Of a DNA stretch of 64,000 bases, positions 1 through 64,000 are shown piece after piece (the first letter of the stretch is position 1; each line of letters starts with the position of its first letter). The stretch covers positions 67,452 to 131,451 of IMG/VR virus record IMGVR_UViG_3300005577_000027; one strand, written 5' to 3'. The position numbers and the translations under genes are program-made. The stretch is from a virus. Taxonomy: Duplodnaviria; Caudoviricetes. The notes under the pieces were generated by a model, which was not told the DNA's origin, ran no database searches, and saw only the letters and a program-made list of their open reading frames with translations.

Positions 1-152
1 AATTTTTTCAAAATACGCTTTTAAACATTCTCCAGCATATTCAGCTTGAGAAAATCCTAATGATGAAAGAGAGATTTCATGATCAGGTATAATTTTATGT
101 AAAGTAGAATCACAATTACTTTGAGATTCACCATGTCTTACTAATAATATTC

Positions 153-788
153 TCATTTTATCCAATCTATTCTATGTGCAGAACAAGTTCCATATTTTTT
201 AATGGCTTCTCTATGTTTATCAGTAGAATATCCATTATGAGAACTAAATTTATAGTCAGGAAATTTGCTATCTAATTCCCTCATTGCTGAAACTTGTACA
301 TTTTTAGCAATAATTGAAGCTGCAGCTACATTATAACTCAGTGCGTCAAATTTAGCTCTATATTCAATATTATAGAGATCATTATCATATGTGTCAAGAC
401 CGTCCAAAAATACTACTAAATCTTTTTTATTAATTTTCATTGAATTAGTTAATATATTCAATCCATTAATAAATTGAATTCGAAATAATTCATTCAAATT
501 TCTACCAGAATTTATTTGATTTACAGAGACTTGCATAACTAGATGTCTACTATTATTTCTAATAAAACTATCTAATTTAAATCGCTTTTCGTCATCTTTA
601 AAAATTTTAGATAATTTTTTACTATCATCTATTCCTGGATAAGATGATAAAGGATTAAATGAAACAAATCCTATATACATATTGCCAGCGATACAACCTC
701 TACCGACATCATCTACGCCGATAATTGTTTTACCTCTGGCAATATATTCTTCATCTATTTTACCAATTTCCGAATTATTTTTGGACAT
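153..788 (-). CDS. rnhB: Ribonuclease HII
   Basis: IIGVDDVGRG, DSKKL, LDG, AAASIIAK and HNGY motifs of RNase HII. Confidence 0.9.
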   Translation of the reverse strand: MSKNNSEIGKIDEEYIARGKTIIGVDDVGRGCIAGNMYIGFVSFNPLSSYPGIDDSKKLSKIFKDDEKRFKLDSFIRNNSRHLVMQVSVNQINSGRNLNELFRIQFINGLNILTNSMKINKKDLVVFLDGLDTYDNDLYNIEYRAKFDALSYNVAAASIIAKNVQVSAMRELDSKFPDYKFSSHNGYSTDKHREAIKKYGTCSAHRIDWIK

Positions 789-45554: not shown

Positions 45555-47123
45555 TTAATTTATAATTTGAAATATTAACCATTCTTCATCAGAATTAATA
45601 TCTGGATAATAAATATTATCTAACCAATATTCTTTTTCTCCGTCTTCACCTTCTATCGCAGGACCATCTGTCCTATGACATTTACCATTTTGATACCACC
45701 ACTTTTCTCCATCAGTAAATTCTAATGCAGGACCATCTAGCCTATGATATTTACCATTTTGAAACCAAAATTTATCTCCATTATTATATATTCTAGCAGG
45801 TCCATCTTCTTTATGTAAAAAATTATTATCTTTCCTACGCCATTCTATTTTATCTTCAGATATTTTTTTATAAATTAAATTATTATCTTTTTGAATAAAA
45901 ACTTTCAAATATTTAATTATTTTTTTATACATTTTATTATTTTAATTTATAATTTGAAATATAATCCACTCTTCGTCAGTTTTAATATTTGAATAATATC
46001 TACCATTTAACCAATATTCTTTTCCTCCATTTTCATATTCTACAGCAGGACCATCTGTTCTATGACATAATCCATTTTGATACCACAATTTAGTTCCATC
46101 ATGAAGTTCAACTGCTGAACCACCTATTCTATGATATTTACCATTTTGAAACCAAAATTTATTTCCATTATAGAATTCTATAGCAGGCCCGTCTTCTCTA
46201 TGAAAAGTATGTGTATCTTCTTTATACCAACGGGTAGTTCCACATACATCTTTTTCAGAATATACTTTAGTCATATTAATTTATAATTTGAAATATAATC
46301 CATTCTTCATTAGTTTTTATATTTGAATAATGTTTATTATTTAACCAATATTCTTTATCTCCGTCTTCATATTCTAAAGCCGGACCTTCTGTCCTATGAA
46401 GTTTTCCATTAATAATCCACCATTTACTTCCATTAAAATGATTTATAGCTGGACCATCTATTCTATGTAATTCTCCATTTTGATACCAAACTTTATCACC
46501 ATTTAAGTATTCTACAGCTGGACCATCATCTCTGTGGAGAAGATATGTGCCTTCTTTATACCAACGAATATTTCCATATTCATCCATTTTAGAATATACT
46601 TTTGTCATATTAATTTATAATTTGAAATATTACCCACTCCTCGTTAGTTTTAATATTTGGATAACATTCATCATTTAAATAATAATATTTATTTCCATTT
46701 TCATATTCTATAGCAGGACCATCTTCCCTATGACGTTGACCGTTTTGATACCAAAATTTATTACCAACAATATCTTCTACTGCAGGGCCATCTACTCTAT
46801 GACATAATCCATTTTGATACCATTCTTTAGTTCCAGAATCCCATTCTACTGCAGGTCCATCTTCTTTATGCCAAAGATCAGTATCTTTTCTACACCACAC
46901 TGTTCGTCCGGGAAATCTTGTTTTATATAGCTCAGTCATATTAATTAACTATTTGAAATATTAACCACTCTTCATCAGTTCTAATATCTATATACCATTT
47001 ACCATTTAACCAATATTCCTTATGTCTATCAAAACGTTCTACTGCCGGACCATCCGTTCCGTGAAGTAAGTCATTTTTAAAATAAAATTTATCACCCCAA
47101 GTATTTTTTACCACGTGAATCAT
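45555..47123 (-). repeat. Cluster 3 of HREDGPA paralogs (45555..45932, 45942..46274, 46276..46608, 46610..46939, 46941..47123)
   Basis: Five tandem ORFs, mostly TAA-N-ATG junctions, same tail. Confidence 0.9.
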
Positions 47124-50731: not shown

Positions 50732-50793
50732 TTAAGTATTCTTTCGTTCTTCAATTTAAATATAAGTCTTAACTAGTATAATGTCAACTATTT

Positions 50794-52178
50794 TTAATTT
50801 ATAATTTGAAATATAATCCACTCTTCATCAGCTTTAATATTCGGGTAACGTTTATCATACAACCAATATTCTTTATCACCATTCCAATACTCTACAGCCG
50901 GACCATCTACTCTATGCAATTCCCCGTTTTGATACCAATGTTTAGTTCCATTATTCCATTCTATTGCAGGACCATCTTCTCTATGACGAACATCAGTTTC
51001 TTCTTTATACCAGGAAATATGACCTCCAGATATTTTTTTATATATATTATCCATATTAATTAATTATCTGAAATATTAACCATTTTTCATCACTATTTAT
51101 ATTTTCATAATATTTATTATTTAACCAATATTCTTTATATTTATCATAATATGCTATAGCTGGCCCATCAGTTCTATGAATTTTACCATTTTGATACCAA
51201 AATTTAGTTCCATCAGTATATTCTACAGCTGGGCCGTCGTCTCTATGAAGAATTTCAGTCTCTTTTTTATACTAATGAATGGTTTCATATTTATCCTTTT
51301 TTGAAAAAACTTTCGTCATTTTAATTAATTATTTGAAATATAATCCATTCTTCATTAGTTTTTATATTTGGATAACGTTTATTATTTAACCAATATTCTT
51401 TTCTTCCGTCTTCATACTCTATAGCTGGACCATCCGTTCGATGAAGCTCACCATTTTGGTGCCATTCTTTAGCTCCACTGTCATGTTCTATAGCAGGACC
51501 ATCTGCTCTATGGCATAATCCATTTTGATACCAACATTTACTTCCATTAGAATATTCTACAGCTGGACCATTTATTCCATGAAGAATATATGTTCCTTCT
51601 TTATACCAACAAATATTTCCATGTTCATCTATTTGAGAATAAACTTTAGTCATTTTAATTTATTATTTGAAATATTAACCATTCTTCATCATTTTTTATA
51701 TTTCTATACGCCTTATTATATAACCAATATTCTTTTTCACCATTCCAATATTCTACAGCTGGACCATCTATTCTATGTAATTTTCCGTTTTGATACCAAT
51801 ATTTGGTTCCATGATTCCACTCTATAGCTGGACCATCTTCTCTATGAAGAATATCTGTACCTTCTTGGTACCAAGCAATATGATTCATACATATTTTTTT
51901 TATATATATTATTCATATTAATTAATTATCTGAAATATTAACCATTCTTTATCAGTTTTAATATCTGGGTATGATTTATCATTTAACCAATATTCTTTTC
52001 CACGCATATATTCTACGGCAGGACCATCAATTCTATGGCGTCTTCCATTTTGAAACCAAAATTTACTTCCATCAATATATTCTACTGCTGGACCATCATC
52101 TTTATGAAGAATATATGTACCTTCTTTGTACCAATAAGTAGTTCCATATTCATCTGTTATAAAATATACTTTAATCAT
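50794..52178 (-). repeat. Cluster 4 of HREDGPA paralogs (50794..51054, 51056..51319, 51321..51653, 51655..51916, 51918..52178)
   Basis: Five tandem members; one has an internal TAG, one a frameshift in an A8 run near 51894-51901. Confidence 0.9.
51056..51319 (-). pseudogene. HREDGPA paralog interrupted by in-frame TAG
   Basis: MTKVFSKKDKYETIH-TAG(51272-51274)[15 protein letters not shown] ... [10 protein letters not shown]. Confidence 0.85.
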
Positions 52179-52205: not shown

Positions 52206-53192
52206 TTAAGAACTATATGCTATCTGAAATCGTACATTAGAAAATTGATTACAATTCAAAATTGCATCACCTTTACCCATTAAATGTTCAGCTCCACTTT
52301 GATCAATAATTACCTTTGAATCAATAACCGAACTAACTTTACAAGCAACTCTAGCAGGAAAATTAGCTTTAATTAATCCCGTTAAAACATCAACGCTAGG
52401 TCTTTGGGTAGCTAATACCATATGACAACCTACAGCCCTACTCTTCTGAGAGATTTTAATTAAAAGCTCCTCAAACTGTCCGTTATCATCTTGTAACATT
52501 AAATCAGATACTTCATCAATAATTACCATAATTTTAGGCACAACAAAAGGACTTTCATTTAAACTTTTAATACCTAATATTCTAAATAAATTATATCGTT
52601 CTTCAATTTCTTCAGCTAATAATTTCAACATTTTAATAACACCATTATAATTATATACAATGGAATTACAATCTCTTACATATTTTCCAAACTCTACTCC
52701 ATTTTTAGGATCAACCAAATAAAGCATTACATCATTACGCTTTTTAATGTTTGCAATTAATGTATGAAGAAATACACTTTTACCAGAACCTGTAGTACCA
52801 GCAACCAACATATGAGGATTAGTTGCCATATCCAACCATATAGGTTCTCCAGTAGCCTGCTCTCCCAATAAAAATGTTAATAATCCATCAGGTCTACTAT
52901 TAATGCTTCGCTCATATAATTCATCAAAATTTATCATATCAGCAGTTCTGGTAGCTACCTGAAGCCTAACTATTCCACTACCGGAAATAGTAGTAACAAT
53001 GGGAATTGTCAAACTCCGTAAAGCTAAACCAATTTCACGAGCATTAGCTTCAATCTTTTTAATAGATTGCCCAGGATCTAGTTCAATATCATATAATTTA
53101 TAATGACGATGCTCTTTAACATCTTTACAATGTCCGCGAATTTTAAATGATTTTAGAATCGAATCAATCACATTTTTATCATAAGTATTCAT
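52206..53192 (-). CDS. FtsK/SpoIIIE-family ATPase
   Basis: PHMLVAGTTGSGKS, VDPK, IIDEVSDL, LATQRPS, GAEHLMGKGD. Confidence 0.92.
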   Translation of the reverse strand: MNTYDKNVIDSILKSFKIRGHCKDVKEHRHYKLYDIELDPGQSIKKIEANAREIGLALRSLTIPIVTTISGSGIVRLQVATRTADMINFDELYERSINSRPDGLLTFLLGEQATGEPIWLDMATNPHMLVAGTTGSGKSVFLHTLIANIKKRNDVMLYLVDPKNGVEFGKYVRDCNSIVYNYNGVIKMLKLLAEEIEERYNLFRILGIKSLNESPFVVPKIMVIIDEVSDLMLQDDNGQFEELLIKISQKSRAVGCHMVLATQRPSVDVLTGLIKANFPARVACKVSSVIDSKVIIDQSGAEHLMGKGDAILNCNQFSNVRFQIAYSS

Positions 53193-53257
53193 AATTAAAA
53201 TGTCAACTTTGTGAAATAATTAAATATTCTCACATTTAAATTAAAGTAATACTGTAA

Positions 53258-54184
53258 TTATATATTTATATTCATTAATTGTGTTCCTAATTTTTTGAGA
53301 AAATTAGAACCGTATGTATTATTTTCTAAATCATTTTCCATAAATTGCGGTAATATTTCATCTTGATACCTAGAAGAAGCAATTCCCCAAGCTATAGAAG
53401 CTACTGAATCTGTATCTCCTCCCCAATTAATAATTCTTTTCATCATGCCTATTAAGCTATTTTCTTCAATTAATAAAGTATTGACAGCATGAGCAGTATT
53501 TATTCCTATTCCTAAATTTTTTGGATCATTTTTATTTTTATGAACAATTCCATTCCAAGGCAATAAAAAATTATATTTAAATAAATTCCAATCAATAAAT
53601 AATTTATAATCACTTATCCATTCATTTAAATATTTAAAAGAATCATTTTTATATAAAGAAAAGTGGCTCATTAATCCGACTAATATGGATGATTGAATCG
53701 CATTATTTGTATTATGAGTTGTAGCCGCTTGAATTTTAGCTATATTAATTATATCTAATGGATTTTTAATAATCCCTAATGGCACAGATCTCATAGCGGC
53801 TCCATTACTATTTGAATCTGTATTAATTAATTTCTTTAATTCATTTACCGAATTAGCTTTTTCCAGAATGCTTTGAAAATTTCTAGAATACCCATCTCTT
53901 TCGTCTCGTTTAAAACAAGATAAAAATGAATACAAAAAATCATCAGAATTAACGTTTGTTCCTTTATTTATTAAAACTTCAGAAATTGCTATAGATTGCT
54001 GAGTATCATCTGTATAATAACCAGGAAGTAATTTATTATACTTAGGATGTTGTAAATATGACTTAAAATTTAATGCTTCAATAAACAAATCTTGATATTT
54101 TAATTGATCAATATATTCTACACAAATAGCATATGCATCAGCTTGAGCAATTCGTAAAAGAATATTATTGTTTTTATTTATCAT
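53258..54184 (-). CDS. ADP-ribosylglycohydrolase (DraG/ARH family)
   Basis: YTDDTQ, SNGAAMR, TTH, GGDTDS. Confidence 0.9.
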   Translation of the reverse strand: MINKNNNILLRIAQADAYAICVEYIDQLKYQDLFIEALNFKSYLQHPKYNKLLPGYYTDDTQQSIAISEVLINKGTNVNSDDFLYSFLSCFKRDERDGYSRNFQSILEKANSVNELKKLINTDSNSNGAAMRSVPLGIIKNPLDIINIAKIQAATTHNTNNAIQSSILVGLMSHFSLYKNDSFKYLNEWISDYKLFIDWNLFKYNFLLPWNGIVHKNKNDPKNLGIGINTAHAVNTLLIEENSLIGMMKRIINWGGDTDSVASIAWGIASSRYQDEILPQFMENDLENNTYGSNFLKKLGTQLMNINI

Positions 54185-54803: not shown

Positions 54804-55979
54804 TTAATTCACTATTTGAAATATTAACCATTCTTCATCAGTTTGAATATCTGGATAATCTTTTCCATTTAAAAAATAACTTTTATATTCATTTGGGGAT
54901 TCCATTGCTGGACCATCAACTCTATGGCATAATCCATTTTGATACCAACATTTATCACCATTAGAAAATTCTATTGCTGGACCATTTTTTCTATGAAGCA
55001 ATCCATATTGATACCAATATTTATTACCATTAAAATATTCTACAGCAGCGCCATCTTCTCTATGAAGAATAGTTGTACCTTCTTTATACCAAAAAATATT
55101 TCCGTATTTATCTGTTTTTGAATAAACTTTTGTCATATTAATTTAATATTTGAAATATAATCCACTCTTCGTCAGAGTGAATATTTGAATATTCATTTCC
55201 ATACAACCAATATTGCTTATAACTATTCTTCATTTCTAAAGCTGGACCATCTGTCCTATGAAACTGTCCATTAATAACCCACCATCTACTTCCATTAGGA
55301 TATTCTATTGCTGGACCATCTACTCTGTGAATTTTCCCATTTTGGTACCATCGCTTTTCTCCATCAGCATATTCTACAGCCGGACCATCTTCTCTATGTA
55401 AAATATCTGTACCTTCTTTATACCAATAAATATTACAATACTCTATTTTTGAATATATTTTTGTCATTAATTTAATATTTGGAATATAACCCATTCTTCA
55501 TCAGTTTTAATATCTGGATAATGTTTCCCATATAAATAATATGCTTTACGACCATCAATGCATTCTATAGCAGGACCATCTGTTCTGTGGCGTCTTCCAT
55601 TTTGATACCACCATTTTGTTCCATCATACCATTCTATTGCCGGACCATCTTCTCTATGGTAGATCAAATATCCTTCATTATCATTTTCTTTATACCATTC
55701 AATGCGATTTTCAAATTCTTTGCTGTATATTTTAATCATTTTTCAATTAATTATTTGAAATATTAACCACTCTTCATCATTTTTTATATCTGAATAATGA
55801 ATATTGTTTAACCAATATTCGTTTTTATAAAAAAATCTTTCATCATGATATTTTATCGCCGGGCCACTTACATTATGTAAACCACAATATGTAGAATAAT
55901 AAGCAGTAAAAATACCACAATCACTTGTATAATAATTTCTATTATAATTATTCGGTTTCATTTTGATTTTATATTTCAT
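54804..55979 (-). repeat. Cluster 5 of HREDGPA paralogs (54804..55136, 55138..55467, 55467..55739, 55743..55979)
   Basis: Four tandem members with EEW(L/I/V)IFQI(I/L/V)N. Confidence 0.9.
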
Positions 55980-56358
55980 CTAATAAATATATTCTCAAAG
56001 TTTTTTATAATTAAATCTAAAGATTAATTATATTTAATATAATATTTTATTGAATGTTAACAATTGTATTAATTCTGAACAAATAGAAATTTTAGCTTCC
56101 AAAACAGGATTATATTTTGTTTCTAAATTATTATATAATCTAGCCCTATCTTCTATTTTATTAAGAATAGATAATAATTCTTCTTTTGTTATATAATCTT
56201 CGTTTTTCATTTATTTATACCTATTTCACAATACCAACAATAAGCTCGAGTAGTTTTACATCCACAATTTTTACATCTTCCACGTAGCTTAGTTCGTATA
56301 TTTAAATATATAAAAATAAGTAATATTAAAACTATAAGTATAACAATAAATTTTTCCA

Positions 56359-57051
56359 TTATAAATTATTTAATTGATTTCCAATTTGTAATTCTTGTGA
56401 AATTTCTACCAGTCTATTTTTAATTTGAGGATTAATACTTTCTAATAAAGGTAGAATTTCTTTTCTAACTTTAACTCTTAAATAATCCATATTCTCATTT
56501 GACGGATCATTTGCATATAAAATATTCCACCGCTTTAAATGTGCTAAAATTCTGTTTTTAGGTACAGAGAGTAATGGCCTGAAAATTCCAATACCATTAT
56601 TAGACACTTCTGGCAAAACATTTAATGAGCCAATATTTTTACCACGCAAAAGTCTGATCATAACAGTCTCTGCATAATCGTCAAAATGATGTGCAGTTAC
56701 TATTACATTGCCATATTCAAACAATGCATCATATCTTGCTTTCCTTGCATGTGATTGTATTCCTTCCGGACCATCAATCACTTTTACCACCTTGCGATAA
56801 AAAGGAACATTGATTTTTAAAGCAAGATTTTCTGCTAAATCAAGTTCTGAATTAGCTTCATTTCTTAGACCATGATTGATTCCTACTGCAATACAATCAT
56901 GACCCAATTCTCTTGCTACTCGAGGAAAAGATACAAGCAAACATTGTGAATCAGAACCACCAGATACTCCTAAAGTAAATTTAGTAGGAGTTTTATAGTT
57001 TCGATTAATTGATTCAGTTAATGCTTTGTGAATATTTCGTTCGAGTTTCAT
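56359..57051 (-). CDS. tilS: tRNA(Ile)-lysidine synthase
   Basis: GVSGGSDS, NHGLR, ARKARY, TAHHFDD.AET, RPLL, DPSN; adjacent tRNA-CAT. Confidence 0.92.
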   Translation of the reverse strand: MKLERNIHKALTESINRNYKTPTKFTLGVSGGSDSQCLLVSFPRVARELGHDCIAVGINHGLRNEANSELDLAENLALKINVPFYRKVVKVIDGPEGIQSHARKARYDALFEYGNVIVTAHHFDDYAETVMIRLLRGKNIGSLNVLPEVSNNGIGIFRPLLSVPKNRILAHLKRWNILYANDPSNENMDYLRVKVRKEILPLLESINPQIKNRLVEISQELQIGNQLNNL

Positions 57052-57056
57052 TTTTT

Positions 57057-57092
57057 ATCTAACTCTTATATCGGTTAGCTGATATTAATATT
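57057..57092 (-). CRISPR. Orphan CRISPR repeat upstream of tilS
   Basis: atctaactcttatatcggttagctgatatt vs array gtctaactcttatagaggttagcttctatt (25/30), stem CTAAC/GTTAG intact. Confidence 0.7.
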
Positions 57093-57118
57093 TTGCTCCA
57101 ATTTCATTTTATTAAAAA

Positions 57119-57196
57119 TGGTGGGCCGTGTAGGACTTGAACCTACAGCCTCAAAATTATGAGTTTTTTGCTCTAGACCTATTGAGCTAACGGCCC
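57119..57196 (-). tRNA. tRNA-Ile2(CAT), with encoded CCA
   Basis: GGGCCGTTAGCTCA..CTCATAA..GGTTCAAGTCC..CGGCCCACCA; beside tilS. Confidence 0.88.
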
Positions 57197-57216
57197 GTAA
57201 TGTTTGTACTATCTTT

Positions 57217-57245
57217 AGTCTAAGTTCATTAACTTATATTGTCAA
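57217..57245 (-). promoter_or_regulatory. Promoter of the tRNA-Ile2/tilS unit
   Basis: TTGACA-N17-TAGACT. Confidence 0.75.
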
Positions 57246-57314
57246 GCGTTTTTAAAATTCTTTATAAAATCTATTAATAAATCTGAATAAGTTCATAACA
57301 TCGAGAGGAATGGT

Positions 57315-58019
57315 ATGAACTTATGTGTAATATGTAATACTGAAATTGAAAATTGTCAATCAAAATTTTGTTCACAAACTTGTAAAACAAAATATTTTAA
57401 TTCAAAAAATAATAATTATTCTATACAAAAAGACCGCGGAATCAATAGAAAACTATACTTTATAAATAAAAAGGGAGGATGTTGTGAAATTTGCGGGTAT
57501 AAACAAAACATGGCTGGATTAGTTTTTCATCATATAGACCCTAGTAAAAAAAAATTTAATGTTGATGGAAGGTCCCTAGGAAATAGATCTTTAAAAGAAT
57601 TAACACTTGAGGTGGAAAAATGCCAATTATTATGTCATCTATGTCATACTCATCATCATAATCCACATTTAGACATGAGTAATTTCGATGAACATATTAT
57701 TAATATTGAATTAAAAAGTCACATATGTAAAGAATTAATCAATAAAACTGAAGAAGAAATTAATAAAATTATTGAAAGTATAAATAATACTAATTTAAAT
57801 AAAACAGCTTTATGGTTAGAAGTATCTTCTACTGCATTATCTAATTTTTTAGATAGAGAAAATTTACGTGATAGAATCAAATTTTTCCGTCAAACTAAAA
57901 TTCAATGGCCTTCAAATGAAGAATTATTGAAAATGCTTTCAGAATCTAATTACTCAGCAGTTGGACGAAAATTAGGTGTAAGTGATAATGCTATTCGCAA
58001 ACATTTAAAATCCAAGTAA
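57315..58019 (+). CDS. HNH endonuclease with N-terminal Zn finger and C-terminal HTH (homing-type)
   Basis: CEICGY, FHHIDP..K, EVEKCQLLCHLCH, VGRKLGVSDNAIRK. Confidence 0.85.
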   Translation: MNLCVICNTEIENCQSKFCSQTCKTKYFNSKNNNYSIQKDRGINRKLYFINKKGGCCEICGYKQNMAGLVFHHIDPSKKKFNVDGRSLGNRSLKELTLEVEKCQLLCHLCHTHHHNPHLDMSNFDEHIINIELKSHICKELINKTEEEINKIIESINNTNLNKTALWLEVSSTALSNFLDRENLRDRIKFFRQTKIQWPSNEELLKMLSESNYSAVGRKLGVSDNAIRKHLKSK

Positions 58020-58173
58020 ACTTTAATTTTAAGGTATAATTAAGTTATTATTACAATATCTGCTTTAAATATTATTACGGTTACCTGATATTTACAATCC
58101 GTAATCTTCGTACTGTATTTAATTACATTGTCAAGCGGCTTATTATTTAATAAACAGCATAGTGCAGAAACTG

Positions 58174-59509
58174 GTCTAATTCTTTTTAGCGATTAGCTGC
58201 TATTATTTGCTTGATCTTTCAAATATCATCATGATACCGCCGTTGTAGTCTAACATTTATAGTAGTTAGCAACTATTACTTAATATCTTGTTTCAGTGCG
58301 ATTGAACTTCTTACTGTCGTTAATTCTTATATTAGTTAGCTGATATTGTTTGTTGAAGCCAAATTTAATCATGTCGACGAGAAACGTGTCTAACTCTTAT
58401 AGAGGTTAGCTTCTATTGATGCTGTTGAAAGTGGCACTCGATCCCACCATTTAGTCTCGGGCCTAACTCTTATAGAGGTTAGTTTCTATTGCTAATATGG
58501 TGACGATGATGTCTAGTACGTGGACTATTATTTGCCTAACTCTCATAGAGGTTAGCTTCTATTACTGACGGGCCGGTGAGAAAGAATAAGATATTCGGAC
58601 GACTAATCTAACTCTCATAGAGGTTAGCTTCTATTATTGACATCGACCGCTTCGCGCGATTTGCGGTTGGAGGGCCGTCTAACTCTTATAGAGGTTAGTT
58701 TCTATTGATGCCGCTATGTGGTGGAGGATGTCTGCCATCACCATTTCGTCTAACTCTTAGAGAGGTTAGCTTCTATTGCTGACTTCGCACTATTTTTTTG
58801 ATCGGTCAGCAGCTTTACGCATTTAACTCTTATAGATGTTAGTTTCTATTGATGCCAGTCGAGAGTGGCACTCGACACCATCATTTAATCCTCACGTCTA
58901 AACTCTTATAGAGGTTAGTTTCTATTACTGACCGCCCTCAGTGACGCCAGGCCCGCCTAACTCTTATAGAGGTTAGTTTCTATTGTTGATAACGTAAGAA
59001 CCGGAGACTGCGTTGGTGACTGGCCGCAAGCCTAACTCTTATAAAGGTTAGCTTCTATTGCTGACGTTTGTTATTTTGTTAAAATTTCTGTCACAATCTG
59101 TCTAATTCTTATAGAGATTAGCTACTATTGATGATGTAATTAAATTACTGCCTAGTGTGTTTTCGCCTTTGCACTGTTCGTCATAGTCTAACTTTTATAG
59201 AAGTTAGCTTCTATTGACGCAGTCATACCTAACGTGAGCATTTCGATTCAAAGTGTCGTCTAACTCTTATAGAGGTTAGCTTCTATTGCCAACACCAAGG
59301 GGGATAAACTTGGCGCCTACTTGGATGCGGTCTAACGCTTATAGAGGTTAGCTTCTATTGCCAACCGACTTAGATCCCGCTGGAAAGTAATGGCAGAATC
59401 GGTCTAACGCTTATAGAGGTTAGCTTCTATTGCCAACAGTGGGTGCAAAAATGGCTGCCAACATCTATTACAGGTCTAACGCTTATAGAGGTTAGCTTCT
59501 ATTGCCAAC
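58174..59509 (-). CRISPR. CRISPR array: 19 repeats (36 nt) and 18 spacers (22-50 nt)
   Basis: Leader-proximal repeat GTTGGCAATAGAAGCTAACCTCTATAAGCGTTAGAC (minus strand). Repeat left ends at 59474, 59402, 59330, 59258, 59186, 59100, 59030, 58955, 58896, 58821, 58748, 58677, 58606, 58534, 58461, 58388, 58318, 58248, 58174. Confidence 0.97.
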
Positions 59510-59700
59510 GGGCGATCAAAATTACTTATATTTTCAAAGATCTACGAAGCACATTGCGAGAGGTTACGTTTACACCCCATCACGCAATGATTATAGTCAC
59601 GATTCAGGCAAACGTCAACCAAATTTAAGCTAATAATTCTGGTGACTTACGTGTTTTGCGAGCGGTTCCGGGTAATTTCACAGCACCAGACCGCTCGCCA
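59510..59700 (-). promoter_or_regulatory. CRISPR leader with promoter TTGACG-N17-TATAAT (59590..59618)
   Basis: Promoter points into the array; inverted repeats CATTGCG/CGCAATG (59552-59589) and GCGAGCGGT/ACCGCTCGC (59658-59698). Confidence 0.8.
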
Positions 59701-61721
59701 TGTCGATCAAACAAGTGAGCTGCCGCATTGTAATTAACGTTTACAGATTTATTACATTTTTTACAATGTACGTCTGATAATTCTTTTTGATTAATTAATT
59801 CTCCGCCACATTTAAAATGTTCTTTAGAAATATTTTTTGCGTTTTCTTCACAAAAATCTTTTCCAAATTTCTGCTTTAGTGCGTCAGTTAAAACACTTAC
59901 TCCAACAAATTGACGCACCGCATTAGCATTTTCTTCTTGCTTTGTACGATTATCATTTTCAACATCAGGAGTTTCGGCAGTTTTAGATTTATCCCAGTTT
60001 TCAACGATAACCTTTCCATAGGTGCTAGATAACTTCTTTGCAAAACAACGGTAAATTTCTTTTCGATGTTTTCGAAGTTTTGATTCAATACCACGGGCCC
60101 AATTAATTAAATGAATTTCTTTTTCTGCCCAAGTCTTTAAATAAAAAGCCATCTGAACATTGGGATCATCAATCGAATTATCTTTACACCACTGAATAGT
60201 ATTATCTAATGTTGTAAATAAATCATCTTTATCACTACAATTTTTCCAAGGTTTATTTTCTTTACAATGAGTTTTCCATTTTTTCCAAAGATCATACCAA
60301 GTATTATCTGGTAAAAATACTTTAGCTAATTCTTTAGAGACGAATAGAAGTTTTTTATGCGATCTCCACTGTGGCAAATTTGTGAAATATTTCGTAATAC
60401 ATTCATCTAAATTTGAATTCTTTAACCATTTTGATACATCTTTCTTAACAGAATCAAAATGTTTATCAGCATGACTAATCAATGTTTCTTTATAAACTAT
60501 ATTTGCACGCATCTTAGAAGGCAAAATTAATTCATTATAATTTTTACCATCAAAGCTAGTAGCAACGGTAATATCATCTGTTTGATCATTTACTTTCCAT
60601 CCTAAATTAATAGCAACATCATCTGGACGAATAGCTGAAGGCTGAGTAAATGAATTAGACTCAATCGTAAATTGAATATTATAAATACTACGATATCCAA
60701 TTTTAGATACAACTAAAAATACCCATTTAATTGTAGCATCTTCTGGCATTTGGCGATGCATAATAAAAGGAATATCTACAAACTTTCCAGTTTTTTCAGT
60801 GCCAAAAAGTTTAATGCGCGCTGTAGCTAAAACTTTATTTTTCTTTTTATTTTGCCGTAAATAAACTTCTGGATGTAAATCAATCTTAAGAACAGGACTT
60901 GACCCACTTAGGGCATCTTTAATTGACAGACCTTTATTTTGAGTAAGCTGCATGCCAATTTTTCCTGAACCATCAAATGATTTAAATTTTGGCTCAAATT
61001 TAGAATTTGAAAAGGATTGTTTTGCAGCCTCTTCAATACTAACATAAGTTCCACTTGAGCATTTGCAATTACTTCTTGCTCGTTTATTTGATGCTTCAGC
61101 TGATTTAGAAATTTTCGCTTTGATAGCCCAAAACCTATTTCCACCATCAATCATTTCTTTGTAGAGATTATTCACTACATTGTGACGATTAACATCATTT
61201 GGACCAAGAGAATCCTTATTTAATTCTTTAGCTTTTTGTTCTAAGCGTTCTTTCTTTAGAAGAGAAAATTTACTATCAGCTTCTTTGAAATAATCTAAAT
61301 TTAATTGAGTATGAATAGATTTAATCTTAGCACTTAAATCTTTTTTCTTTAATTTTAAATCCTTAATTTCTACAGCTTGCGGAGTTAACTGACGATTTTT
61401 TTTAGGAAATTTAGGATCTAAACTATTTTCCGCACGGCCGCCAAAACTTTTACGTAATTCAATAATTTTCTCTTCAGTGAGAAGTAGATCGTTTTCCAGC
61501 TGACGTAATTCTGGTGACATTAATTTACGAAGGTTACGGAAGCGATTTCGACGCTTTCGTTCAATTTCTACAAGTTTGTTTCGGTATTTATGCGCAAAAT
61601 ATAATTGATCATTAATTAATTTAATTTGCTCTGATTCTTTAGGAAGAAAAGCTCCATAAGAATACACTTTCGTTTCAGAGGTTGAAGTTTTACGAGCGTT
61701 GGATTTTTTAACTGGTTCCAT
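59625..61721 (-). CDS. cas12m: Type V CRISPR effector, Cas12m (V-U1)-like, RuvC predicted inactive
   Basis: VYSYG..AHKYRNKLVEIE, FDGSGKIGMQL, MHRQMPEDA.IK, RuvC-I VAINLGWK, QWRS, RKEIYR, RuvC-II IVENW, Zn finger HFKC/CKKC, RuvC-III NVNYNAA; adjacent array. Confidence 0.85.
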   Translation of the reverse strand: MEPVKKSNARKTSTSETKVYSYGAFLPKESEQIKLINDQLYFAHKYRNKLVEIERKRRNRFRNLRKLMSPELRQLENDLLLTEEKIIELRKSFGGRAENSLDPKFPKKNRQLTPQAVEIKDLKLKKKDLSAKIKSIHTQLNLDYFKEADSKFSLLKKERLEQKAKELNKDSLGPNDVNRHNVVNNLYKEMIDGGNRFWAIKAKISKSAEASNKRARSNCKCSSGTYVSIEEAAKQSFSNSKFEPKFKSFDGSGKIGMQLTQNKGLSIKDALSGSSPVLKIDLHPEVYLRQNKKKNKVLATARIKLFGTEKTGKFVDIPFIMHRQMPEDATIKWVFLVVSKIGYRSIYNIQFTIESNSFTQPSAIRPDDVAINLGWKVNDQTDDITVATSFDGKNYNELILPSKMRANIVYKETLISHADKHFDSVKKDVSKWLKNSNLDECITKYFTNLPQWRSHKKLLFVSKELAKVFLPDNTWYDLWKKWKTHCKENKPWKNCSDKDDLFTTLDNTIQWCKDNSIDDPNVQMAFYLKTWAEKEIHLINWARGIESKLRKHRKEIYRCFAKKLSSTYGKVIVENWDKSKTAETPDVENDNRTKQEENANAVRQFVGVSVLTDALKQKFGKDFCEENAKNISKEHFKCGGELINQKELSDVHCKKCNKSVNVNYNAAAHLFDRHGERSGAVKLPGTARKTRKSPELLA

Positions 61722-61771
61722 AATATTATTTATTGGTTATGTATTATATGTAAATCGTAAATGGGTATATG

Positions 61772-62326
61772 TCAAGAATTAATATTTAAATCTAATTTAG
61801 ACTTATATAAAAAATTCGTCCCTGATTCTTTAATTTTTTGAATTATAGTTTTTATAACGTTTTCATCTAATCTGCGCCATTCAGTTCCGCCATCTAAGTG
61901 ATATTTAGATGTATAGTATTTAATAGCATTTTTTAATTTTAGATTTCCATCTATTGTGTAAATTGTTTGGAAATGCTCAGGATTACCAACTTGAATATTT
62001 TTTACTCGTTTATTTGGAGCAATAGATAATCCAATTTTCCATATAGTTGGATCATTCGAATGTCTAGCAAAATAAACTTGAGTTTTTCTATTTTTAATTT
62101 TACTAATAGATTTTTTATCCAAACCTAATGGATCATATTTAATATGAATATTCAATTTACATTTTTTAATTAATTTAATATATTCTTGAAATATAAGAAA
62201 ATCATCTTCTAATTCTGGTAGATTCTTTATTTGTTTTTTACCAGAATTAGGATTAAAATTATGTTTTCGTTGAATTAATTTCAATCTATTTTCAATATAT
62301 TTAATTACATTTAATTTATCAATCAT
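61772..62326 (-). CDS. GIY-YIG/T5orf172-like domain protein
   Basis: VYFAR..WKIGLS..PNKRVKNIQVGNP..TEW. Confidence 0.75.
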   Translation of the reverse strand: MIDKLNVIKYIENRLKLIQRKHNFNPNSGKKQIKNLPELEDDFLIFQEYIKLIKKCKLNIHIKYDPLGLDKKSISKIKNRKTQVYFARHSNDPTIWKIGLSIAPNKRVKNIQVGNPEHFQTIYTIDGNLKLKNAIKYYTSKYHLDGGTEWRRLDENVIKTIIQKIKESGTNFLYKSKLDLNINS

Positions 62327-62884: not shown

Positions 62885-64000
62885 TTAATTTATAATTTGA
62901 AATATAATCCATTCTTCATCAGTTTTAATATTTGGGTATGGTTTATCATTTAACCAATATTCTTTATCACCATTAGGCCATATTACAGCAGGACCATCCG
63001 TTCTATGACATTTTTCACTCTGGTACCATTCTTTATGTCCAGAGTTATTTTCTATAGCTGGTCCATCAGCTCTATGCCACATATCATTTTGATACCAATG
63101 CTTAGTTCCATCAACAAATTCTATAGCTGGACCATCTTCTCTATGAAGAATATTTGTACCTTCTTTACACCAATAAATATTTCCATATTTATCTTTTTTT
63201 GAATATACTTTAGTCATTTTTAATTAATTATCTGAAATATAATCCACTCTTCATCAGTTTTAATATCTGGATAATATTTATTATTCAACCAATATTGTTT
63301 ATCTCCATTTATGTATTCTACAGCGGGACCATCTATTCTATGAATTTCTCCATTAATACACCAATGTTTATCACCATTAATCCATTCTATTGCTGGGCCA
63401 TTCTCTCTATGACATAATCCATTTTTGAACCATTGTTTTTCTCCATCATTCCACTCTAATGCTGGGCCATCTATTCTATGGTATAGATCATTTTGATACC
63501 AAAACTTACCTCCATTAGAACACTCTACAGCTGGTCCGTCTTCCCTATGAAGAATATTAGTACCTTCTTTATACCAATAAAGATTACTAAGTTCATTTGT
63601 TTTACAAACTACTTTAGTCATATTAATTTATAATTTGAAATATTAACCACTCTTCATCAGTGTTAATATCTATATACCATTTACCATTTAACCAATATTC
63701 TTTTCCTCCATTTTCATATTCTACAGCAGGGCCATCAATTCTATGACGCTTTCCATCATAGCACCACCACTTTTCTCCATCATAAAATTCTAATGCGGGC
63801 CCACTTTCTCTATGAAAGATACCATTTTGATACCAATATTTGGTTCCATTGGTACATTCTATAGCTGGACCGTCATCCCTATGACGAATATTTGTACCTT
63901 CTTTATACCAATGAATGTTATTATATTTATCTATACTAGAATAGACTTTAGTCATATTAATTTATAATTTGAAATATTAACCATTCTTCATCAGAATTAA
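62885..64000 (-). repeat. Cluster 6 of HREDGPA paralogs (62885..63217, 63220..63621, 63623..63955, partial 63957..64000)
   Basis: 3-4 repeats each plus the shared tail; runs off the window edge. Confidence 0.9.

Follow-up and report, generated by a model that had tools for sequence, protein, structure and literature searches.

The window analysed here, 64,000 nucleotides (nt) long, is the final 64 kb of a 131,451-nt phage record in IMG/VR (IMGVR_UViG_3300005577_000027; Caudoviricetes). It carries a CRISPR array, a gene for a Cas12m-like effector and, beyond the array, a single further copy of the CRISPR repeat that stands 5 nt before the start codon of tilS, the gene of tRNA(Ile)-lysidine synthase. 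This lone repeat is the subject of the present analysis. The elements of the locus follow each other on the minus strand throughout, in the order cas gene, leader promoter, array, transfer RNA (tRNA) promoter, tRNA, lone repeat and tilS. CheckV completeness of the record is ~31%, and proteins of the locus recur on a 390-kb contig, which points to a huge AT-rich phage; the runs in which the stretch occurs are rhizosphere and soil metagenomes. The features of the locus are as follows.

59625–61721, minus strand: Cas12m-like effector gene, 698 aa (P0001; matches to PDB 23vw and 8hhl, alignment)
59590–59618, minus strand: leader promoter-like site between cas gene and array, TTGACG, 17 nt, TATAAT (11/12 positions)
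58388–59509, minus strand: CRISPR array, 16 repeats of 36 nt (repeat searches)
58063–58353, minus strand: degenerate array trailer, with repeat copies at 58063, 58175, 58248 and 58318 (matrix and repeat families)
57315–58019, plus strand: free-standing HNH endonuclease gene (phrog_3106, E 2.3e-18)
57217–57245, minus strand: promoter-like site upstream of the tRNA, TTGACA, 17 nt, TAGACT (10/12 positions)
57119–57196, minus strand: tRNA, anticodon CAU, CCA end encoded (ARAGORN; Rfam 68.7 bits)
57057–57092, minus strand: lone repeat, 36-nt footprint with a 30-nt core at 57057–57086 (matrix 22.6 bits; -36 to -1 in Cas12m2 numbering)
57052–57056, minus strand: AAAAA spacer between the lone repeat and the tilS ATG
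56359–57051, minus strand: tilS, encoding tRNA(Ile)-lysidine synthase in its short phage form of 230 aa (PF01171, E 1.3e-40)

The array spacers are mostly 34–39 nt long, with outliers of 22 and 50 nt, and the array period is mostly 70–76 nt, with 58 and 86 nt at two units. The HNH gene, whose product has no Pfam match at E 0.01, probably encodes a homing endonuclease. The tRNA(CAU) is presumed to be tRNA-Ile2, the TilS substrate, on the strength of its conserved linkage to tilS.

Identity and placement of the lone repeat

A weight matrix derived from 15 array repeats was run along the full 131,451-nt record in both orientations. The scores are 39.0–59.8 bits for the 16 array repeats, 22.6 bits for the lone repeat and 21.0 bits for the trailer copy at 58248, while nothing else in the 131 kb, on either strand, exceeds 4.9 bits. 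The segment 57057–57092 is thus confirmed as a true copy of the array repeat in the orientation of the array, and it is the sole orphan copy in the record; the further orphan repeats for which the first-pass annotation had proposed a genome-wide scan did not appear outside the array and trailer. A search with the 31-nt repeat at up to 3 mismatches returned 14 matches, all in the array (none in 100 shuffles), and missed the lone repeat because it carries more than three mismatches.

Measured start to start, the last good repeat (58388) is 1331 nt away from the lone repeat, and the remnant at 58063 about 970–1006 nt. It is solitary in that nothing repeat-like is found within 100 bp of it, the nearest such sequence being 58063. 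The HNH gene, the promoter and the tRNA stand between it and the last trailer remnant, and the array period is not kept. The description in the first-pass annotation is borne out: a single copy in array orientation, an intact CTAAC/GTTAG stem, a position between a presumed tRNA-Ile2 and tilS, only AAAAA before the ATG, and a 'gctgatatt' variant common to the trailer copy at 58318 and, nearly so, to that at 58063. Its remark that there is no obvious Shine-Dalgarno (SD) sequence also holds, yet this is ordinary here, since of the record's 109 open reading frames (ORFs) with 120 aa or more only 31 have an SD-like 4-mer at -20 to -4, the other 78 being without one.

The lone repeat is not an assembly artefact, for it is covered with 0 differences by an independent Logan contig of 2916 nt from run X1, which is probably the source sample. 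Between the promoter-like site of the tRNA (57245–57217) and tilS no terminator-like site was found, and the lone repeat sits within this tRNA-tilS transcription unit in the sense of a guide RNA. In the RNA of 57020–57125 (minus strand) the GAGUU of the repeat can alternatively pair with AACUC of tilS codons 2–3, looping out the AUG (z-score only -1.6).

The repeat as a guide scaffold

The repeat RNA, read from the minus strand, forms two helices, helix A (8–12 with 21–25) and helix B (15–19 with 30–34), which in Cas12m2 numbering correspond to -29 to -25 with -16 to -12 and to -22 to -18 with -7 to -3, respectively. In the solved Cas12m2 scaffold (PMC10442227) the 5' end is disordered between -36 and -30, A(-24) is flipped out, G(-23) pairs with A(-2), and C(-1) is recognised base-specifically. 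The helices of the repeat, together with A13, G14, A35 and C36, find one-to-one counterparts in the stem and the pseudoknot of Cas12m2 and in its A(-24), G(-23):A(-2) and C(-1). The two systems share a 36-nt repeat in which two coaxial helices of 5–6 bp are placed alike, A(-24) is unpaired, G(-23) pairs with A(-2) and the terminal base is C, and they share a related effector nearby (PMC10442227). Unlike that scaffold, the present copy stands alone in an operon, at a distance of 1.3 kb from the nearest good repeat of the array, and ends in U, and the effector of this locus has the catalytic triad N-E-N.

Support for the fold comes from covariation among 21 copies, 19 of them distinct, with the limit that the structure was derived from those same sequences; copy 58175, misaligned by one base at its 3' arm, was scored as unpaired there. 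Paired cells amount to 92.6%, against 86.2% in column shuffles, and cells changed on both sides number 8, against 1.8 expected (0/500 shuffles reach the observed value in either case). Pairs with double changes number 3 against 1.3 expected (27/500 shuffles). When the partner column is slid, only 17.9–43.6% of cells are paired.

The lone repeat differs from the consensus core at five positions, G11U, A12C, U21G, C22A and C36U. The first four constitute two compensatory pairs which keep helix A at 5/5, and helix B is also paired 5/5. Among the single bases A13, G14 and A35 are kept, with U36 in place of C, a change also present in 2 of the 16 array repeats (58606 and 58821). At the same two pairs of helix A the trailer copies show further pair types (C-G, U-A, G-C), and two of them, 58318 and 58063, have lost pairs, although both lie nearer the array than the lone repeat does. 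Across the trailer and the lone repeat the pairs 11-22/12-21 occur as U-A/C-G, G-C/C-G, G-C/U-A and G-C/A-U, a variety of mostly pairing bases which reads like a fossil record of compensatory repeat evolution.

The Cas12m-like effector

P0001 matches Cas12m in the PDB (23vw, E 3.2e-31; Cas12m2 8hhl, E 1.9e-8) and has no Pfam or PHROG family match; on these matches it is a Cas12m-like protein of type V-M, a binding-only family. Homologues of P0001 numbered 13, of which 12 were aligned with it. His322-Arg323 (H322-R323) is invariant in the 13/13 aligned sequences and, matched by eye, appears to be the H-R pair by which Cas12m2 reads C(-1) and G(-23):A(-2). Asparagine occupies both aspartate positions of the RuvC site (AINLGW and NVNYNAA), giving the triad N-E-N. 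Asparagine at the first position is common in the clade of P0001, while the N-V-N of the third motif is found in P0001 alone among the 13 aligned sequences, the others having D-x-D. The Cas12m triads listed in the literature consulted are HEK, HQK, HDD, DED, NED, DND and N-D-D, and N-E-N is not among these.

Cas12m is reported to bind DNA without cutting and to silence as a roadblock, to cut pre-CRISPR RNA within the repeat independently of RuvC, and to use guides of ~17–20 nt with T- or C-rich 5' protospacer-adjacent motifs (PAMs) (PMC11013384, PMC10442227). Huge phages are reported to carry type V-U variants, mostly without Cas1, Cas2 and Cas4 (PMC7162821). Cas1 was not found in the 131-kb record, which, at ~31% of the genome, provides no evidence of its absence. 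Of 8 related Cas12m loci in IMG/VR, 5 have an array that follows the cas gene downstream in the same orientation, which supports transcription of the array from the minus strand here, and a full 36-nt repeat ending in AC could be derived in 3 of those loci.

The ORFs beside the effector gene encode a T5orf172/MUG113-domain protein and a protein of unknown function. The former gene, directly upstream of cas12m (61772–62326, minus strand), may encode a second homing-type nuclease.

A precedent for a lone repeat close to a gene start is offered by a GC-rich Cas12m phage (L025), whose own 36-nt repeat recurs once, with 3 mismatches, outside its array (142–177, minus strand), in an intergenic position 11.6 kb from that array and ~45 nt before a GTG start. 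No flanking duplication was detected around it, the score of 14 being reached by 33% of random sites.

A strain-specific insertion

A second strain was found in run X2, a soil metagenome which contains 47% of the sampled words and comes from a study other than that of the likely source run. Its 2584-nt contig (record 12) matches the window from 58417 to 57112 with positions 1–1301 and from 57055 to 55760 with positions 1302–2584, the 56 nt between, 57056–57111, being exactly missing. The features in and around the missing segment are listed below.

57056–57111, no strand assigned: 56-nt segment (lone repeat and one direct-repeat copy), missing in the X2 strain (contig comparison)
57087–57110, minus strand: copy U, a duplicated tilS 5' end, 20/24 nt identical to copy D (direct-repeat family)
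57031–57054, minus strand: copy D, the authentic tilS 5' end, AAA and codons 1–7, MKLERNI (direct-repeat family)
57037–57056, minus strand: would-be 20-nt guide, AAAAA, ATG and 12 further nt, immediately 3' of the repeat (length presumed from Cas12m2)

The X2 contig keeps the trailer, the HNH gene, the tRNA and tilS, and separate X2 contigs carry cas12m; the X2 array has other spacers, at least one of which is not present here. By this comparison the lone repeat is a young or dispensable insertion. The X2 strain may never have had it or may have lost it by recombination between U and D.

The direct repeat formed by 57031–57054 and 57087–57110 (20/24 identical) has a flank-match score of 28; among 20,000 random sites 1.3% score as high, and among 5,000 AT-rich sites 0.04%. 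Copy U opens an upstream ORF of 10 codons (57107–57075, MKLEQNINIS*), whose stop lies inside the repeat, in helix B. The TilS of X2 (P0104, from the 2584-nt contig) is 97% identical and begins MKLERNI like copy D, and the consensus start of the TilS family is M-x-x-E-R-N-I; on both grounds copy D is taken to be the real tilS start. The four differences between U and D include three which are silent in the tilS frame (CTC to TTG, GAA to GAG).

The ancestral arrangement can be read from the relatives of tilS, for which 88 homologues were found, several of them named tRNA(Ile)-lysidine synthase by their sources. The tilS loci compared were 17 from IMG/VR and JGI metagenomes, of which the 10 closest were examined for a tRNA. 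In 6 of these 10 a tRNA(CAU) ends 0–29 nt before tilS (ARAGORN), leaving no room for a repeat; two more have a tRNA-like 3' end by eye, and two more distant ones have none. Repeat-like sequence was absent from all 17 loci, the best score being 7.5 bits. The gap from tRNA to ATG is 67 nt here, 11 nt in X2 and 0–29 nt in the six related loci, and the TTGACAAT...GACTTA promoter box upstream of the tRNA is also present in two of the loci (L003 and L004). From the close tRNA-tilS spacing in X2 and the relatives it follows that the module with the TTGACAAT box is ancestral and the repeat a derived insertion. Another candidate (L001) was set aside as a related locus; it shares the 3' part of the tRNA, but the phage is GC-rich and unrelated, and the part read shows no tilS downstream.

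Conservation in related phages, which the first-pass annotation had named as a check on its proposal and whose absence it had counted as refuting, is therefore not seen, and the lone repeat, missing in the sister strain and in the relatives, is not a conserved regulatory element.

Interpretation

On its sequence, the lone repeat is a genuine solitary type V-M repeat, which entered the conserved tRNA(CAU)-tilS operon as part of a strain-specific 56-nt insertion that also doubled 24 nt at the start of tilS. Because it stands in sense within the operon and its scaffold is intact, binding and cutting by the effector at this point, and a guide drawn from the 5' end of tilS, are mechanistically plausible. 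That Cas12m binds the lone repeat with some effect on tilS is here given about an even chance. The earlier proposal of an element addressed by the effector thus survives in part: the guide sense within the tRNA-tilS unit and the preserved scaffold stand on its side, the absence from the sister strain on the other.

In the mechanism envisaged, Cas12m would recognise the scaffold within the tRNA-tilS transcript, cut at its 5' edge and remain attached. The ~20 nt that follow (AAAAA, AUG and the first four codons of tilS) would then serve it as a guide, in which the tilS AUG occupies positions 6–8. In cis, the mRNA would be withdrawn from translation, and tilS output would drop as free Cas12m rises; ribosomes on the upstream ORF of copy U, which ends in the repeat, may compete with the binding of Cas12m. 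In trans, a loaded Cas12m would carry a guide matching the uninterrupted tRNA-tilS junction of sister phages, whereas its own genome would be shielded, the repeat occupying the position of the PAM.

A bolder version of the effect in trans, which is considered improbable, regards the lone repeat as an "in-place guide", dropped between a PAM and the neighbouring sequence and serving as an allele-specific exclusion device. Per the contig join, the junction of the empty, X2-type allele reads T5-A followed by AAAAAATGAAACTC..., i.e. TTA and the exact would-be guide. A filled allele would make the guide and at once replace the PAM, and the loaded Cas12m would sit on the junction of co-infecting phages without the insertion and not on its own genome. 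Such a device would formally resemble a homing element, built from one CRISPR repeat, and the lone repeat of L025 could be a further use of the same trick.

Several observations weigh against the mechanism envisaged. A strain without it is 98.6% identical over the adjoining 1.3 kb, so that necessity is not indicated. The final base of the scaffold (-1) is U and not C, at a position read specifically in Cas12m2, and the active site of the effector, N-E-N, is a variant outside the triad lists of the literature consulted. The upper-stem pairs U21-A29 and C22-G28, which belong to our own reading of the consensus, are missing in the lone repeat; they are alternatives to the pairing of helix A, and the three leader-proximal repeats lack them as well. 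The intact pairing could be mere inheritance from a functional donor repeat. A protospacer was found for none of the array spacers, hence no PAM is defined. None of the runs containing the stretch is registered as RNA; run X3, possibly of RNA, yielded a few contigs of 151 nt, none of them over 57040–57120, and says nothing either way.

Origin of the insertion and alternative explanations

The comparison with X2 also bears on how the insertion arose. To its right (57112–58417; tRNA, HNH gene and trailer) the two strains differ at 18 of 1306 nt, or 1.4%, and to its left (55760–57055; tilS and beyond) at 102 of 1296 nt, or 7.9%; over cas12m they differ by 3.4–4.4%, so that divergence is a mosaic across 55760–62067. 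The insertion sits exactly at the jump in divergence, and the low-divergence block contains the homing-type HNH gene. A 21-nt promoter box is duplicated around that gene (57228–57248 and 58117–58137, 86% identity), the copy at 58137 being without the -10 part and running into the decayed repeat 58063. This pattern fits a block which may recently have been exchanged between co-infecting relatives, with an imprecise junction at the tilS end.

These same facts sustain the principal competitor of a functional reading, namely that the 56 nt are an inert scar of illegitimate or gene-conversion-type repair at the edge of the exchanged HNH-tRNA-trailer segment. The repeat would then be intact only through its youth, or through copying from a functional repeat, with no selected effect on tilS or Cas12m. 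In its favour are the presence of the insertion in one strain and not the other, the coincidence of the site with the change from 1.4% to 7.9%, a homing-type HNH gene within the low-divergence segment, a second pair of direct repeats (the promoter box) flanking that gene, and the occurrence of only one lone repeat in 131 kb. A simple recent copy from within the genome is unlikely, however, given that U and D differ at 4/24 nt and that the lone repeat is at least 3/27 away from every extant repeat (best match 24/27). The four internal changes also keep pairing, where the trailer copies 58063 and 58318 lost pairs, and a competent scaffold in sense within a transcribed operon would be a substrate of Cas12m even so. 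An inert scar is regarded as rather less probable than an effect on tilS, though it is a strong competitor.

The mostly silent changes between U and D and the lack of a close extant repeat hint that U and the repeat may have come from another genome, for example as a spacer-repeat unit whose spacer matched the tilS start of a relative. A donor array with repeats of the lone-repeat type was not found by repeat patterns in IMG/VR. Peptide patterns from the effector and TilS recovered no close relatives there and the repeat pattern nothing, and a looser pattern covering the loop of the lone-repeat type gave two single chance matches (L019 and L020), neither of them in an array. Two further ideas were rejected. 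The flanks of the lone repeat score at shuffle level against the array region (148/300 and 238/300 shuffles equal) and do not qualify as old spacers, and a repeat-like stretch inside tilS that might have attracted recombination has a score of 18, which 13% of random pieces reach.

A less probable alternative is a self-regulation of the crlRNA/CreR type, in which the guide would send Cas12m to the DNA of copy U, blocking the polymerase after the tRNA and uncoupling tilS from tRNA expression by negative feedback. TTA precedes copy U, and the guide matches it at 13 of the first 17 and 15 of the first 20 positions (mismatches at 2, 12, 14, 17 and 19). Guide-like RNAs of solitary repeats are reported to repress neighbouring promoters through ~16 bp of partial pairing and a PAM (bioRxiv 10.1101/2024.12.27.630466), and Cas12m to act as a repressor both at promoters and within coding regions (PMC11013384). 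Nevertheless one mismatch falls on the PAM-proximal position 2 and others within the 17-bp duplex of the Cas12m2 type, TTA as a PAM of this effector is only putative, the duplication itself accounts for the similarity of U and D, and the guide-target pair, missing in X2, is not conserved.

The first-pass annotation had offered as its own alternative that the lone repeat is a remnant of the trailer, an old terminal repeat stranded beside tilS after insertion of the HNH gene and the tRNA had parted it from the rest of the trailer. The orientation agrees with this, as does the AUAUC variant common to the trailer copies 58318 and 58063, and the HNH gene is a plausible mobile insert. X2, however, keeps trailer, HNH gene, tRNA and tilS without the lone repeat, and the tRNA(CAU) adjoins tilS in 6 of the 10 closest loci; so common an adjacency implies that the tRNA was not inserted between repeat and tilS. 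The duplicated tilS 5' end at the flank, moreover, marks an insertion into the module, and this origin is judged very unlikely.

Least probable of all is a decoy RNA soaking up the Cas12m of a host or of the phage itself and damping interference, as solitary viral repeat units downstream of promoters do when they act as RNA anti-CRISPRs (Racrs) (PMC10651486), for the matching effector and array are the phage's own and 2.5 kb away with no host system known, the unit forms part of an mRNA, with a start codon 5 nt further on, and is not a free small RNA, and the sister strain lacks it.

Comparison with known systems

Viral solitary repeat units of the Racr kind are the nearest named class for the lone repeat, and the guide-like RNAs of solitary repeats are the nearest in mechanism. 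With the former it shares a single viral repeat downstream of a promoter, resembling a real repeat in sequence and structure (PMC10651486). Racrs are described as standing without cas genes and as usually matching the system of the host (PMC10651486), whereas here the cognate cas12m and array lie in the same phage, and the unit lies inside a tRNA-mRNA transcript immediately before a start codon. With crlRNA and CreR/CreA it has in common a lone repeat-like handle and a 'spacer' that was not acquired (bioRxiv 10.1101/2024.12.27.630466), an effector that would bind without cutting, and a partial site with a T-rich flank nearby (copy U). In contrast to these, the downstream gene itself supplies the 'spacer' here with its 5' end, the partial target arose as a side effect of duplication, and the pair of repeat and target is not conserved, being missing in X2 and the repeat absent from the 17 tilS loci. 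The known cases of crlRNA/CreR in the source consulted are of type I-C (bioRxiv 10.1101/2024.12.27.630466).

Degenerate terminal repeats of an array are a further point of comparison, in view of the sequence variants which the lone repeat shares with the trailer copies 58318 and 58063. It differs from such repeats in lying off the array and its period, in pairing better than the trailer copies, and in being inserted in another operon with a flanking duplication.

Guide-like regulatory RNAs of a similar kind include tracr-L and the scaRNA of Cas9. The delocalised CRISPR RNA of type V-K is also comparable, as a guide unit with a diverged repeat, outside the array, associated with a tRNA gene and serving a type V effector that only binds; units of type V-K, however, work with a tracrRNA and direct transposon homing to a tRNA gene. 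Near the present locus transposition genes were not seen, with no search aimed at TnsB, TnsC or TniQ.

Solitary CRISPR repeats are known as viral anti-CRISPR decoys and, in bacteria, as sources of guide-like RNAs, and the context is new here, that of a lone repeat of the phage's own, presumably binding-only Cas12m which a translation-related gene has 5 nt ahead of its start codon. The literature consulted on these systems does not describe a Cas12m repeat that stands alone and is joined to a start codon, with no search aimed precisely at this arrangement. If the mechanism envisaged is true, message and guide would be one RNA. The pair of strains with and without the repeat constitutes a natural control for a possible self-tuning of a phage's own gene or marking of sister genomes. 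The insertion suggests that recombination can carry repeats of such systems into other operons. Were it no more than a scar, it would still document the origin of solitary repeats and lend covariation support, from a distant lineage of AT-rich phages, to the guide fold of Cas12m.

Spacers and further features of the window

The spacers of the array have no match in GenBank phages. When all of them were compared with the 131-kb record and the related loci, only chance matches of 10–17 nt were obtained, and one of 21 nt with two mismatches. Two spacers six units apart, 58424–58456 and 58858–58890, are 82% identical, as if taken from two alleles of one target; a degenerate pattern made from this pair had no match among viral contigs or genome contigs.

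Elsewhere in the window, tandem families of small genes (110–133 aa) with an internal period of 69 nt lie at 45651–46870, 50792–52134, 54899–55067 and 62885–63955. Three of these genes were tested and had no Pfam match at E 0.001, and many related but divergent contigs of the families occur in runs X1–X4. An ATPase gene of the FtsK/SpoIIIE family (E 1.1e-34) adjoins one for an ADP-ribosylglycohydrolase (E 9.4e-24) at 52206–54184 on the minus strand.

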